Source: Escherichia coli
GTDB lineage: Bacteria; Pseudomonadota; Gammaproteobacteria; Enterobacterales; Enterobacteriaceae
Length of the DNA stretch: 64,000 bases
Strand: one strand, 5' to 3'
Assembly: GCF_016026235.1 (NCBI RefSeq)
Contig: NZ_CP065613.1
Part shown: positions 1 to 45,457 of the stretch, piece after piece
Layout: every line of letters starts with the position of its first letter
How positions within the stretch are numbered: position 1 is the stretch's first letter
Translations under genes and position numbers: made by a program
Notes under the pieces: generated by a model
Told to the model about the DNA's origin: nothing
Seen by the model: only the letters and a program-made list of their open reading frames with translations
The model's database searches: none

Positions 1-716
1 AAACGAAAGGTGCGGGAACGACGTTCTGGATGTACACCGGCAAGGGCGATGCGTTTGCGAACCCTTTGTCGGACACTGACTGGCTGCGTCTTGCGATGGT
101 GAAGGATCTGCAACCTGGCGAAATGACCGCTGATGCAGAAGATGACACTTATCTCGATGATGAAGATGCAGACTGGAAAACGACAACCCAGGGGCAGAAA
201 TCCGTCGGTGATACTTTGGCGACGCTGGCCTGGCGTCCGGGTGACAGCGGGCAGAAAAAACTGGTTCAGTTGTTCGATTCCGGTGAAGTCTGCGCGTTTC
301 GTATCAAATACCCCAACGGTACGGTTGATGTTTTCCGTGGCTGGCTGAGTTCACTGGGTAAAACCATTACCTCAAAAGAGGTGATGACCCGTACTGTAAA
401 AATCAGCGGTGTGGGGCGTCCGTATCTGGCAGAGGAGGGCGCTGAAACCGTGGGTGTTACCGGACTGACGGTGGCACCGGCATCTGTCAGTGTCAAAGCG
501 GGAGCAACCACCACACTGACCTTTACAGTAAAACCTGACGGGGCCAGTGACAAAGCGATCAGTGTGCATTCGTCAGATCCTCAGACTGCTTCGGTGACCC
601 TGAGCGGGCTTGTGGCCACGGTGAAAGGCGTGAAGCAGGGCAGTGTCAGCATCGTGGGCATGACCTCTGACGGAGAGTTTGTGGCAGTGGCTGCGGTGAC
701 CGTCAGCGCACCATAA
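1..716 (+). CDS. V: Major tail protein V, 5'-partial (frame open to window start), with C-terminal Ig-like domain
   Basis: Translation matches lambda gpV (ANPLSD..DWLRLA..KDL.PGE...YLDDEDADW; C-terminal Big_2-like TVAPASVSVKAG...); no stop between position 3 and the listed ATG at 30. Confidence 0.9.
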   Translation, partial: TKGAGTTFWMYTGKGDAFANPLSDTDWLRLAMVKDLQPGEMTADAEDDTYLDDEDADWKTTTQGQKSVGDTLATLAWRPGDSGQKKLVQLFDSGEVCAFRIKYPNGTVDVFRGWLSSLGKTITSKEVMTRTVKISGVGRPYLAEEGAETVGVTGLTVAPASVSVKAGATTTLTFTVKPDGASDKAISVHSSDPQTASVTLSGLVATVKGVKQGSVSIVGMTSDGEFVAVAAVTVSAP

Positions 717-736
717 CAGGACGATACTCATCATTG

Positions 737-759
737 CCCCGGTTATCCGGGGCTTTTTG
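737..759 (+). terminator. GC hairpin (CCCCGG-TTAT-CCGGGG) followed by CTTTTT between V and G; possible partial terminator/attenuator
   Basis: Perfect 6-bp GC stem, 4-nt loop and T-run read directly from sequence. Confidence 0.4.
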
Positions 760-774
760 CATCCGGAGAACATG

Positions 775-1161
775 ATGTTTCTGAAACAGGATACGTTTAA
801 TTATGAAAAACAGTCCGTGGTGCTCAGTGAGCTGTCCGGGCTGCAGAGAATTGAATATCTGACGTTTGTTCAGCAGCGAACGGCAAAGTTTGATGCACAG
901 GAGGGAGAACTGCCGGAGGCTGAACGACAGATTGCTTTTCTGCGTATGGGAATGGATATCAATGCCTGGCTGGTTTCCCGCTCACTGTGGAATGCTGAGC
1001 AGTCTCAGGATGTTGAGACGCTTTGCGCATCCATTATGACAACATGGTCGTATGATGCGCTGGGCGCGGGGGCGGAGAGGGTTCTGTCGCTGAGCGGTAT
1101 GGGGACCATTGAGAATGCCGGGGATGATGATCATGAGGCGCTGACGCCGGAAAAGTCCTGA
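775..1161 (+). CDS. G: Tail assembly chaperone G
   Basis: MFLKQDTF..VVLSELSGLQRIEYL resembles lambda gpG; GGAG 6 nt upstream of ATG 775 (ATG 772 also possible). Confidence 0.85.
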   Translation: MFLKQDTFNYEKQSVVLSELSGLQRIEYLTFVQQRTAKFDAQEGELPEAERQIAFLRMGMDINAWLVSRSLWNAEQSQDVETLCASIMTTWSYDALGAGAERVLSLSGMGTIENAGDDDHEALTPEKS

Positions 1162-1499
1162 CGCGGGAAATGCAGTTTGTCATGCGGCTTGCCCGGGAGT
1201 TCCGGCGGGCAGACTGGCGGCGGATGCTGTCGGAAATGTCGGCCACTGAGCTTGGTGAGTGGGGCGATTATTTCCGGATGCAGAGCTTCAGTGATGTGTG
1301 GATGGATGCGCAGTTTGCCTCGCTGAAGGCATTGATCGTGAGAATGGTGTCCGGCAGCAGCGATGCTGCGGTGGCTGATTTCAGCCTTTTACCGGAAGAG
1401 AACGGGATACCGGAGCGAACGGACGAAGAACTGATGCATCTTGGGGAAGGTATTTCCGGAGGTGTGCGTTATGGACCAGATAGCCAACCTGGTCATTGA
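1137..1499 (+). CDS. T: T segment of tail assembly chaperone G-T; no own start, expected to be expressed by -1 ribosomal frameshift from G
   Basis: ORF in the -1 frame relative to G, open from 1137, overlapping the last 25 nt of G; same arrangement as lambda G/G-T; only A-run in the overlap is GGAAAAG at 1149-1155. Confidence 0.7.
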   Translation, partial: GADAGKVLTREMQFVMRLAREFRRADWRRMLSEMSATELGEWGDYFRMQSFSDVWMDAQFASLKALIVRMVSGSSDAAVADFSLLPEENGIPERTDEELMHLGEGISGGVRYGPDSQPGH

Positions 1500-4400
1500 T
1501 TTGGGGATTGATGCGGCAGAGTTTAAAAATGAAATTCCCCGTATCAAAAACCTTCTGAATGGTGCAGCCAGCGATGCAGAACGGTCTTCTGCCCGTATGC
1601 AGCGTTTTATGGAGCGTCAGACTCAGGCGGCCCGGCAGACAATGCAGGCGGCTTCTTCGGCTGCAACAGCAGCATCAGCCCATGCGCAGACGGTGGAAAA
1701 GAACGCACGGGCTCATGAACGCATGGCCCGTGAGGTGGAACAAACCCGTCTGCGCGTGGATGCCCTGAATCAGAAAATGCGCGAGGAACAGGCGCAGGCC
1801 AGGGCACTGGCGGAGGCGCAGGATAAAGCGGCTGCCGCCTTTTATCGCCAGATTGACAGTGTGAAACAGGCCGGTGCGGGGCTTCAGGAATTACAGCGTA
1901 TTCAGCAGCAGATCCGACAGGCCAGAAACAGTGGCGGGGTTGGTCAGCAGGATTATCTGGCGCTGATTTCGGAGATCACGGCGAAAACCCGTGCCCTGAC
2001 GCAGGCAGAGGAACAGGCCACCCGGCAGAAAGCGGCGTTTATCCGCCAGCTTAAAGAGCAGGCAACCCGCCAGAATCTGTCGTCTTCTGAGTTGCTTCGC
2101 GCCAGGGCGGCTCAGCTGGGGGTAAGCAGTGCTGCAGAAGTGTATATCCGCAAAATGGAGCGGGCAGGAAAAGCCACACATTCGCTGGGGCTGAAAAGTG
2201 CGGCAGCCCGGCGGGAGCTGGGGGTGTTAATCAGTCAGATGGCGCGCGGCAATTTTGGTGCGCTGAGGGGATCCGGGATAACGCTGGCTAACCGTGCCGG
2301 ATGGACAGGCGCACTGATGTCGCCGAAAGGCATGATGACTGGCGGCGTTATTGGCGGACTTGTCGCGGCGGTCCTGGGTCTGGGTAAAGCCTGGCATGAC
2401 GGCCGGAAGGAGGGCGAGGAATTTAACCGTCAGCTGGCGCTGACGGGACATTATGCCGGTGTCACTGTCGGGCAGTTGTGGAAACTCAGCCGGGCCATAT
2501 CCGGGAATGGTATCACGCAACATGCGGCAGCCGGTGCGCTGGCACAGGTGGTGGGCAGTGGGGCATTTCATGGAAACGATATTGGTATGGTGGCGAAAGC
2601 TGCCGCACAGATGGAGCGATCGGTTGGCCAGTCGGTCAGCGATACCATAAATCAGTTTAAGCGGCTGAAGGATGATCCTGTAAATGCCGCGAAGGCGCTG
2701 GACAATGCGTTGCATTTTTTGACTGCCACTCAGCTTGAGCAGATACGCGTCCTTGGGGAGCTGGGGCGGTCCAGTGATGCGGCCCGGATCGCCATGTCTG
2801 CGCTGGCAGAGGAAACCGGTAAACGCACATCTGATATTGATAATAATCTCAATGCGCTGGGTAGTACGCTGCAAACCTTGTCTGACTGGTGGAAGCAGTT
2901 CTGGGATGCGGCCATGAATATTGGTCGTGAAGACTCGCTGGATGCGCAGATTGATGCGTTACAGGAAAAAATTCAGCGCGCGAAAAAATATCCGTGGACA
3001 AACGCCTCCACACAGGTGGAGTACGATCAGCAGCGTCTTAACGATCTTCAGGAGAAAAAACGCCGGAAGGATTTGCAGGATGCAAAAGCGCAGGCAGAAC
3101 GGAATTACCAGGAGCAACAGAAACGCCGGAATGCTGAAAATGCCGCGCTGAACCGGATGAATGAAACGGAAGCTGCACGACATCAGCGGGAAATTGCGCG
3201 TATTAATGCCATGCAGTACGCCGACCAGGCTGTCAGGGATGCGGCGATACAGCGTGAAAATGAACGTTACGAAAAAGCCATTAAGAAAAATACACGGGCA
3301 ACCCGTAATGATGAGGCCACCCGGTTATTGCTGCAGTACAGTCAGCAGCAGGCACAGGTGGAAGGGCAGATTGCTGCTGCCAGACAGTCAGCAGGCATTG
3401 CCACTGAAAGGATGACTGAAGCGCATAAACAGCTTCTGGCCCTGCAGCAGCGCATCAGCGACCTGGACGGGAAAAAGCTGACGGCAGATGAAAAGAGTGT
3501 GCTGGCCCGTAAGAATGAGCTGATTCAGGCGCTGACGCTGCTGGATGTGAAACAGCAGGAGCTGCAGAAACAGACAGCGCTTAACGACCTGAGAAAAAAA
3601 ACGGTTCAGCTGACCAGCCAGCTGGCAGACAAAGAACGTGCACTGCGTGAGCAGCACAATCTGGATATTGCCACTGCAGGTATGGGGGATAAGCAGCGGC
3701 AGCGCTACCAGGCACAGTTGCGCATCCGGCAGGAATACCGGCAACAGTTGCAACAGCTTGAGAATGACAGTCGCCAGAAAGGCACTTACGGGACGGAGGA
3801 CTACCGGAGGGCTGAGGAGGTGCTGAAGGGGAGCCTGAAGCGACAACTGAATGAAAACAAACGCTACTGGCAGGAACTGGAAGTGGCGCAGGGCGACTGG
3901 AAAAACGGTGCCATGCGGGCGTTTCAGAATTTTACGGCGGATGCGGATAATGCGGCGGGAACGGCAGAACAGATGTTTACAGTGGCATTCAGCAGTGCCG
4001 GTAATGCACTGGCGACATTCTGTACCACCGGTAAGCTGAATTTTAAATCCTTCACCTCTTCCCTGTTGTCAGATATGGCCAGAATTATGGCACAGATGGC
4101 CATGATGCAGGCGGTAAAGGGCGTCGGTTCTTTATTCGGCTTCACGACTAATGCTGATGGCGGTGTTTACCAGTCTGCTGATTTGAGTCGCTACAGTGGC
4201 ATGGTGGTTAACCGTCCGACGTTTTTTGCTTTTGCAAAAGGCGCGGGTGTGATGGGGGAAGCGGGACCTGAAGCCATTCTGCCACTGCGTCGCGGTGCTG
4301 ATGGTAAGCTGGGGGTTGTGGCGGATACTGGTGGTTCAGGCATGGTGATGTTTGCCCCGCAGTACAACATTGAGATCAATAACGACGGCACGAACGGGCA

Positions 4401-42594: not shown

Positions 42595-43077
42595 CTAATA
42601 CCAGATGGCAGGTTGTAGTACTGCTAGCGAAGTGAGTATTTCACGTAATGTCTCCCCATCAGGAAACACGAGTTCTGGGGCAATCTCAAACAGCGGCCAC
42701 AGCATAAAGCCGCGATTCTTCATATCGTAATGCGGGACGGTGAGTCGTTCGGTATTAATGGTTTCATTACCAAACAACATGATATCAAGATCGAGTGTGC
42801 GCGGTCCCCAGCGTTCTGCTTTACGAACGCGACCTTGCTGCAACTCTATTTGCTGTGTGTGATTAAGTAATTCTTCAGGCGCAAGTGTTGTTTCCAGCGC
42901 CACGGCTGCGTTTAAGTAATCGGGTTGATCTTGCGGCCCCAGCGGTGGGGTGCGGTAAAACGAAGAAACGGTAAGAATGTGGCTTTCAGGGATATCGCCT
43001 AATGCTTTCAGGGCAGCATTGACCTGCTCCAGCGGAGAGGCCAGATTGCTGCCTATGGCAATATACGCAACTGTCAT
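42595..43077 (-). CDS. folK: 2-amino-4-hydroxy-6-hydroxymethyldihydropteridine pyrophosphokinase
   Basis: 160-aa [22 protein letters not shown]...; 4-nt overlap with pcnB. Confidence 0.9.
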
Positions 43078-44471
43078 GCGGTACCCTCACGACGCGGTGC
43101 GCGTTTGCGTGGACGACGAGTACGGCGACGCGGTGACGGCTCTTCATCCAACTCGTTAAGCATCCCTTTTTGATCTGGTGGCGCGGAAACCTGGAACTCA
43201 CCCCACCATTTCACCAGACGCTGCAGTTCAGCGTTACGTTCAACTTCAGCTCGCAAGGCCAACAGGTCATAAGCCGCACGGAACTTAGGATGCTCCAGCA
43301 GTTTCCATGCGCGTTTACCCTGACGACGGGACATACGCAACTGCAACTGCCAGATATCGCGGGTTAACGTCGTCAGACGTTTCGGGATTGCCAGTGAACG
43401 GCAGGCTTCGTCCAGCACGTCGTTCATCGCCAGCGCGAAAGCGTCGTGATAGGTCAGGCCGCTTTCCTGGGCAATCTTCTGTGCCGTCTCCAGCAGTGGG
43501 TACCAGAACATGGCGGCAAACAGGAACGCCGGGTTCACGCGCATATCGTTATGGATACGCGTATCGGTATTCTTCAGCACCTGTTCAATGATCCGCTCCA
43601 TCGGGCTGTCGCCATTTTCCGTGAAGTAGCGGGTAATGGTCGGGAACAGCGGCTGGAACAGATGATATTCACACAACAGCTTATAGGTATCGTAACCGTA
43701 GCCCGCTTGTAGCAGTTTAAGCGATTCTTCAAACAGGCGTGCCGGTGGGATATCGTTCAACAGGGTAGCGAGGCGAGGGATCGGTTCTGCGGTTTCCGGG
43801 CTGATGCGCATACCCAATTTGGCGGCAAAACGTACCGCGCGCAGCATACGTACCGGATCTTCACGGTAGCGCGTTTCCGGGTTACCAATCAGACGGATAA
43901 CGCCGTCCTTCAGATCCTTCATACCGCCAACGTAATCACGGACGGTAAAATCCGCTACGCTGTAATAGAGGCTGTTGATAGTGAAATCGCGGCGCTGGGC
44001 GTCTTCTTCGATGGAGCCGAAAATGTTGTCGCGCAGCAACATGCCGTTTTGCCCGCGTTGGGAGGTCGTGCGGTCGCTGACGTTACCTTCGTGGTGTCCA
44101 CGGAAGGTCGCAACTTCGATAATCTCCGGGCCAAACATTACATGAGCCAGACGGAAACGGCGACCCACCAGGCGGCAGTTACGGAACAGTTTGCGCACCT
44201 GCTCAGGCGTGGCGTTAGTGGTTACGTCAAAATCTTTCGGCTTTTTGCCAAGTAACAGGTCGCGCACGCCGCCGCCAACCAGCCAGGCTTCGTATCCCGC
44301 TTTGTTGAGCCTGTACATTACCTTCAGGGCATTTTCACTGATATCTTTGCGGGAAATAGCATGCTGCTCACGCGGGATCACCGTCACCTGTGGACGGGCG
44401 ACTGCCTGTTCAGCCTCGCTTTCCTCGCGGCTTAGCACCTTGCGGCAAAAATTAGCGACTCGGGTAAAAAT
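43074..44471 (-). CDS. pcnB: Poly(A) polymerase I; start assigned to the ATT (AUU) codon at 44469-44471
   Basis: 465-aa product beginning (I/M)[16 protein letters not shown]...; matches the known non-canonical AUU initiation of E. coli pcnB; the ORF-track 472-aa form uses an upstream TTG. Confidence 0.88.
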
Positions 44472-44530
44472 AGTACACCTCGGTAGTGTCAAACATCATT
44501 CAGGACAAAAAAATAGCGGCTAATCATAGC

Positions 44531-45457
44531 TCAGCATGACGCATTTGAGAATGTTGAATTTACAATTGCCGACTCGGGCACGGCGGTCAGCGTCCAGTTT
44601 TTGACGGCTGACTGAAGGATTTGCTCGACGCTGAAATCCTGCCAGTGTGCTTCTGCCTGCTGCCCCAGAAATTGAAGTGCCGCGATTAGTACCGGGCGTG
44701 GATCGCCTTTCGGCAACGCAGGCGCATGATTCTGCTTGGAAAGTTTAGCGCCTTGTGGATTAAGCGCCAGCGGCAGATGAATGTAATCTGGCACTTTCCA
44801 GCCAAAAAGCTGGTACAGCGAGATTTGCCTTACTGTTGGTTCAATCAGATCAGCCCCACGCACTATTTCTGTAACGCCCTGGAAATGATCATCAACCACA
44901 ACAGCCAGGTTGTAGGCGAACAACCCATCACGGCGATGAATGATAAAATCTTCCCGTGCCAGTTTTTCGTCGGCGTGAATAATGCCGCGCAGCTGGTCAG
45001 TAAATTGCGTGACCGGATGCTGCTGGCGGATACGCACTGCGGCATTGTCTGGTCCATGATGCAACACCCGGCAATGACCGTCGTAAATACCGCCAATGCT
45101 TTGAATACGCGCACGCGTACAGGTGCAGTAATAACTTAGTCCTTGTTCATGTAACCAGGCGAGTGCTTCACGATAGGCGTCGTGACGTTGCGATTGCCAG
45201 AGAACATCGCCGTCCCAGTGCAGACCGTAATGTTCCAGCTGGCGCAGGATAGTTTCTGCGGCACCGGGAACTTCACGAGGCGGGTCGATATCTTCTATGC
45301 GTACCAGCCAGCGACCTTGCCGGGCGCGAGCCTGCAAATAGCTGCCGAGCGCGGCGATCAGAGAGCCAAAATGAAGCTCGCCGGAAGGAGAGGGGGCGAA
45401 GCGGCCAATATACTGTGTGTCTGTCATCTCTTTGAACAAAAAATAAGGCGGGAGCAT
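44531..45457 (-). CDS. gluQ: Glutamyl-Q tRNA(Asp) synthetase (YadB)
   Basis: GluRS catalytic-domain paralogue with class I motif (HFGS); start may instead be the ATG at 45427 ([16 protein letters not shown]). Confidence 0.85.

Follow-up and report, generated by a model that had tools for sequence, protein, structure and literature searches.

In Escherichia coli, only two genes, infC and pcnB, are confirmed to start with AUU, as stated in several papers (bioRxiv 10.1101/063800, which is Hecht et al.; PMC5499595, PMC9410913 and PMC4245954). Both genes combine this codon with a good Shine-Dalgarno sequence that is conserved across species. However, the AUU of infC serves the autoregulation of the gene by its own product, the initiation factor IF3, through IF3 discrimination, whereas that of pcnB, which encodes poly(A) polymerase I (PAP I), is described simply as limiting expression. 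According to PMC2939334, PMC3561954, PMC9764084, PMC5499595, PMC4245954 and bioRxiv 10.1101/063800, all of them citing Binns & Masters 2002, translation of pcnB starts at AUU and the synthesis of PAP I is thereby limited, and AUU is also named as the start in PMC9410913. The experimental demonstration is credited to Binns & Masters 2002 (Mol Microbiol 44:1287) in PMC2939334, PMC3561954 and PMC9764084; both AUU initiation and its limiting effect on PAP I are thus supported by experimental proof that is taken here from the literature, second-hand. PMC3561954 is inconsistent on this point: its introduction gives UUG, whereas the discussion gives AUU. An earlier reading of the DNA under study, made from the letters alone (hereafter the sequence-only reading), had presented the AUU codon as a known device for limiting poly(A) polymerase I, and the passages of the papers citing Binns & Masters 2002 say the same. 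Meanwhile, a rare ATT start codon attenuating expression, as in pcnB, is described for ebpA of Enterococcus faecalis in PMC4447247, both the gene and the organism being unrelated to E. coli pcnB.

The window analysed here, a stretch of 64,000 nucleotides of E. coli DNA (contig NZ_CP065613.1), harbours folK, pcnB, gluQ (gluQRS) and dksA in this order of increasing coordinates, all on the minus strand, and the neighbourhood gluQ-pcnB-folK is arranged as in E. coli K-12. In more distant relatives the genes flanking pcnB also belong to the Pfam families tRNA-synt_1c (upstream) and HPPK (downstream). Counted from ATT, the coding sequence of pcnB occupies positions 43074..44471 of the minus strand and consists of 465 codons and a stop codon. 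Its identity as the gene of poly(A) polymerase I follows from the list of open reading frames and from the match of the 465-residue product to the NCBIfam equivalog NF008634, of which it is a member with a score of 996.4 bits (cut-off, 702). In this alignment, residues 1-464 are matched to positions 1-468 of the 469 positions of the profile, with position 1 falling on residue 1 of the form that starts at ATT.

A 401-bp query spanning the start of pcnB was recovered at 95% identity or above in 5424 of the 5426 complete E. coli genomes. Over this region the gene is closest to an O121-type strain, RM8352 (NZ_CP028110.1), with which it shares 100% identity. Compared with pcnB of E. coli K-12 (b0143), the sequence shows no nucleotide difference over the 3' end of gluQ, the leader, the Shine-Dalgarno sequence, the ATT and an initial ~26 codons; the gene order and the annotated start are shared as well, and the start site shows no difference. 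A PDB construct derived from K-12 differs from the PcnB of the window by one residue in the region compared, carrying E where the latter carries D at residue 261 (numbered on the 465-aa form). The PDB constructs of PAP I begin at residue 28, and the N-terminus lies outside them.

Two observations concern the neighbouring genes. The stop codon of pcnB and the start codon of folK overlap by 4 nt (ATGA, 43074..43077, minus strand), an arrangement that suggests possible translational coupling of the two genes; the start codon of folK varies between ATG and GTG among other species. On the other side, gluQ (44531..45457, minus strand) is given 308 aa from an upstream ATG in the list of open reading frames, as in K-12 (927 nt). 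The RefSeq PGAP annotation of gluQRS in the O121 strain (897 nt, 298 aa, beginning with MTDTQY) disagrees with this start.

At positions 44469..44471 the plus strand reads AAT, that is, ATT on the minus strand (44471->44469), on which pcnB is encoded; the sequence-only reading had left the strand unstated. The reading frame of pcnB runs on this strand as TGA (44498-44496) TGT TTG (44492-44490) ACA CTA CCG AGG TGT ACT ATT (44471-44469), after which it continues with the codons TTT ACC CGA GTC GCT AAT TTT TGC CGC AAG GTG. The frame is closed by the in-frame TGA (44496..44498, minus strand), nine codons 5' of ATT, and from this stop codon to the conserved N-terminus the frame contains a single canonical start codon, TTG at 44492. 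No in-frame ATG occurs between the TGA and codon 52 (44318..44316), where the first one is met, in agreement with the claim of the sequence-only reading that a nearby ATG in this frame is lacking. The same reading had remarked that the list of open reading frames opens pcnB at the upstream TTG, at the price of 7 additional residues, and this is exact: the listed frame has 472 aa and contains the ATT as its eighth codon, versus 465 aa when translation is counted from the ATT itself.

A lone ATT is uninformative, because isoleucine codons occur everywhere. The ATT at 44469..44471 (minus strand) acquires its significance because the start region is identical to that of K-12, because RefSeq annotates the gene from this codon, and because the ATT and its Shine-Dalgarno sequence are invariant in all 80 of the species compared below while the sequence upstream drifts. 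In RefSeq, pcnB extends over 1398 nt beginning with exactly this ATT in both E. coli K-12 MG1655 (b0143, NP_414685.4) and NZ_CP028110.1. Together with the direct reading of the frame, these data bear out the placement of the start at 44469-44471 by the sequence-only reading; the AUU start of pcnB is already known and already correctly annotated in RefSeq. The N-terminus proposed in that reading needs one amendment. The conserved sequence does begin at the ATT, but residue 1 is formylmethionine (MFTRVANF...) and not isoleucine. An AUU start codon is read by the initiator tRNA, which places fMet at residue 1. An entry for pcnB was absent from the two N-terminomics/riboproteogenomics supplements that were searched.

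The pcnB locus was compared among 80 species-representative genomes of Enterobacteriaceae (L003-L082), in which the protein is 87-99% identical. The ATT initiation codon is invariant in 80 of 80 species. The Shine-Dalgarno sequence GAGGTG (44476..44481, minus strand), separated from it by 4 nt, is likewise present at fixed spacing, occupying positions -10..-5 in every species, and is preceded by C at position -11 in 78 of them. The pairing predicted with the 3' end of 16S rRNA amounts to -9.7 kcal/mol for the ATT; the other candidate starts give +0.4 (upstream TTG), +1.4 (GTG, codon 12) and -2.9 (ATG, codon 52). Farther upstream, beyond the Shine-Dalgarno sequence, the leader is free to vary in both sequence and length, with insertions and deletions. 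On the other side of the ATT, residues 2-13 do not differ among the 80 species, and the variable columns within codons 2-11, five in number, are all synonymous third positions; this stretch is therefore translated in the frame of pcnB. The Shine-Dalgarno sequence and the AUU constitute the only conserved initiation signal able to give the conserved N-terminus. Judged as a member of the class of AUU-initiated genes (infC/pcnB type), the locus has AUU at the initiating position, the E. coli TTG at codon -7 being present but devoid of a Shine-Dalgarno sequence, and it has a Shine-Dalgarno sequence at functional spacing (GAGGUG, 4-nt spacer).

We consider it very probable that pcnB of the window is initiated at the AUU at 44471..44469 to yield a protein of 465 residues, and that the poor start codon keeps PAP I scarce. 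In the proposed mechanism, ribosomes would be recruited by the perfectly conserved GAGGUG Shine-Dalgarno sequence, and translation would begin with fMet-tRNA at the AUU, which follows after 4 nt, to produce the 465-residue protein. As a poor initiation codon, AUU would be discriminated against by IF3, as it is in infC, so that translation would be inefficient. This would result in a very low copy number of PAP I and the toxicity of over-polyadenylation would be avoided. The TTG seven codons upstream would then belong to the untranslated leader and stand in frame by chance. According to published estimates, a cell contains a few dozen molecules of PAP I. That the AUU of pcnB is sensitive to IF3 discrimination is inferred by analogy with infC (PMC9410913).

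Beyond the 80 species, the initiation region was followed into more distant relatives. In a homologue with 67% identity (L083, CP043324.1) the arrangement GAGGTG-TACC-ATT is kept, and the gene caller chose another upstream TTG, 13 codons away. In this entry (601..2098) pcnB is divided between two called genes of 316 aa and 150 aa, which may reflect a frameshift, a pseudogene or a sequencing error. A homologue with 62% identity, from a genome of 1.08 Mb (L084), is annotated from ATT, with GAGGTG before it. At 55% identity (L086), GAGGA is followed after 7 nt by ATT ATT ACA AAA GTC ATT AAT (IITKVIN...). At 54% identity (L088), the N-terminal peptide TIRRVIELCKKVI is found in frame after a TAG stop codon, and a canonical start is absent, only CTG or ATC being available. 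At 48% identity (L085) the situation is ambiguous, and the start may be either the GTG inside AGGTG or an ATC 6 nt downstream. Homologues with 44-48% identity retain a similar amphipathic, basic N-terminal peptide. As far as such sequences can tell, the distant relatives agree with a cited statement according to which pcnB is widely initiated at non-canonical codons, the evidence beyond Enterobacteriaceae being anecdotal.

The degree of conservation around the start is unusual. Per-column conservation in the 80 species delineates an ultraconserved initiation region from -11 to +35 (44436..44482, minus strand), which includes the synonymous sites of codons 1-9. These codons (ATT TTT ACC CGA GTC GCT AAT TTT TGC) are essentially invariant, the rare CGA included; their mean synonymous entropy is 0.048 bit, whereas pcnB as a whole averages 0.95, and no 9-codon window of the gene has a lower value. 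In folK and gluQ of the same species, codons 2-10 display normal variation (0.95-0.98 bit). The constraint on the start region of pcnB thus appears to exceed the needs of coding, which hints at an additional cis-acting constraint. A second nucleotide-invariant patch, CGCAAAGATATCAGT, covers codons 41-45 (44337..44351, minus strand) and is predicted by RNAalifold to pair with codons 5-9. The predicted long-range helix comprises 13 bp between codons 5-9 and codons 41-46, with both arms invariant and no covariation. The duplex has an energy of -12.3 kcal/mol, which is matched by 1.5% of shuffles, and the same arm has stronger partners in other windows of pcnB; the helix is retained here as a lead. 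In addition, RNAalifold predicts a hairpin at 44462..44482 (minus strand), in which CGAGGUG would pair with UACCCG (codons 2-4), so that the Shine-Dalgarno sequence would be sequestered and the AUU placed in a 9-nt loop; the conservation of this hairpin follows from the invariance of the sequence, and it is not kept in the homologue with 55% identity (L086). Folding of the leader and the 5' coding region as a single sequence gave structures no more stable than those of shuffles (z = -0.76 and +0.74), and a scan of 44250..44600 against Rfam returned no family. RNA structure, a bound factor and fine tuning of the weak start are alternative candidate causes of the constraint from -11 to +35. That the AUU is embedded in a cis-regulatory RNA element, which we did not find described and in which initiation at the weak codon would be tuned by a structure or by a bound factor, is a tentative proposal that we regard as rather unlikely.

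A different addition to the AUU-initiated protein would be a shorter isoform, translated from the first in-frame ATG, codon 52 (44316..44318, minus strand), on transcripts made from pS1, a sigma-S promoter situated downstream of the AUU. According to PMC2939334 (Nadratowska-Wesolowska et al. 2010), this model goes back to Liu & Parkinson 1989 and was revived there as a possibility, with pS1 found active in vitro as well as in vivo, the latter under special conditions, and with two anti-PAP I bands seen on western blots. The ATG is a candidate, by our own identification, for the start that Liu & Parkinson 1989 had first put forward, and it may give a minor truncated isoform; it is discussed as '+1(b)' in PMC2939334 and has a weak Shine-Dalgarno-like AAGG (-2.9 kcal/mol) in front of it. 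Synonymous variation is also suppressed in a patch of codons 35-50. However, the spacing of AAGG, 2 nt upstream of the ATG, is poor, and the consensus of the 80 species at codon 52 is CTC (Leu), the first and third positions being among the least conserved, so that the ATG is not kept. Furthermore, the authors of PMC2939334 themselves hold a short isoform to be unlikely under normal conditions. The codon-52 isoform is no competitor to the AUU as the main start, and even as a minor product it seems improbable.

In the 3' end of gluQ, a consensus scan detected one sigma-70 promoter-like site (TTCTCA, 17 nt, TATGAT; 44523..44551, minus strand), against 0.5 expected, which is a candidate for the published promoter pB. 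Its TATGAT, together with TAGCCGC, is kept in 69 of the 80 species, and the ATT lies 42-78 nt away from it, depending on the species, a pattern that fits a conserved promoter followed by a non-coding leader of variable length. Closer to the start, the hexamer TTGACA (44487..44492, minus strand), whose first half is the in-frame TTG, is a perfect -35 consensus, and TATTTT follows 14 nt downstream, overlapping the ATT. This pair is a candidate that may represent the published pS1 or Liu & Parkinson promoter, described as 'downstream of the AUU'. The start of pcnB is also overlapped by an out-of-frame sORF of 15 codons (ATGATG at 44499..44494, stop at 44452; minus strand), which has no Shine-Dalgarno sequence, retains its ATG in only 43 of the 80 species and is probably meaningless.

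The start chosen in the list of open reading frames, the in-frame TTG at 44490..44492 (minus strand), would give a PcnB of 472 residues. As noted above, no other canonical start codon lies in frame between the TGA and the conserved N-terminus; forms of 472 aa are deposited for several genera, UUG is the codon named in the introduction of PMC3561954, and ATG stands at this position in Salmonella subspecies. Yet the TTG has no Shine-Dalgarno sequence (+0.4 kcal/mol), and RefSeq, the K-12 annotation and the literature all put the start at the AUU. Nor is the codon itself maintained: at the position aligned with it, TTG is present in 26 of the 80 species, ATG in 2 (the Salmonella subspecies) and CTG in 12, the rest carrying non-start or stop codons. 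In 43 of the 80, no in-frame ATG, GTG or TTG exists from the nearest upstream stop to the ATT, and in some of the species this stop is very close, 5 codons before the ATT in L051, L057 and L078 and 6 codons in L038. Ahead of the Shine-Dalgarno sequence, both the length and the composition of the DNA change in the manner of non-coding sequence. Translation of pcnB mainly from the TTG is thus highly improbable, and it is the AUU that is retained as the start. Some low-level initiation at codon -7 (TTG in E. coli and 25 other species, ATG in the Salmonella subspecies) is possible, judging from the codons present. The two Salmonella genomes concerned are those of Salmonella enterica subsp. diarizonae and arizonae (L022, L023), in which the in-frame ATG at codon -7 is accompanied by an intact ATT and Shine-Dalgarno sequence; Salmonella PcnB forms of 472 aa are found among the deposited proteins (P0013).

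Translation from the GTG at codon 12 (44436..44438, minus strand), the type of call made by Prodigal and the start of some gene callers, which would turn the preceding conserved stretch into an untranslated leader, can practically be dismissed: the GTG is invariant in 80 of 80 species, many database entries of PcnB are 454 aa long, and the extreme nucleotide conservation from -11 to +35 could in principle mark a non-coding regulatory element, but the AAGG that abuts the GTG provides no Shine-Dalgarno sequence at a usable spacing, all 5 variable columns of codons 2-11 are synonymous third positions, distant relatives alter the residues before codon 12 conservatively and with the frame retained (e.g. 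IITKVINLYHRLF), the similar basic, amphipathic peptide persists down to 44-48% identity, and published work assigns the start to the AUU.

With the AUU retained as the start of pcnB, its consequences for databases can be seen in the lengths of deposited PcnB proteins from near-identical genes, which cluster at 472, 465, 454 and 447 aa (database entries P0001-P0120). The non-canonical start leads to systematic mis-annotation of pcnB by gene callers, the form of 465 aa being the correct one, and the lesson for annotation is that open reading frame finders and gene callers misplace the start of this gene.

For the biology of E. coli, the AUU start of pcnB as such brings nothing new: PAP I is toxic in excess, and its AUU is a textbook case of the choice of a start codon setting the level of expression. 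A possible exception is the constraint that acts on the start region at the nucleotide level in the Enterobacteriaceae compared. A cis-regulatory RNA element, if true, would explain why this constraint is far above that of an ordinary gene start.
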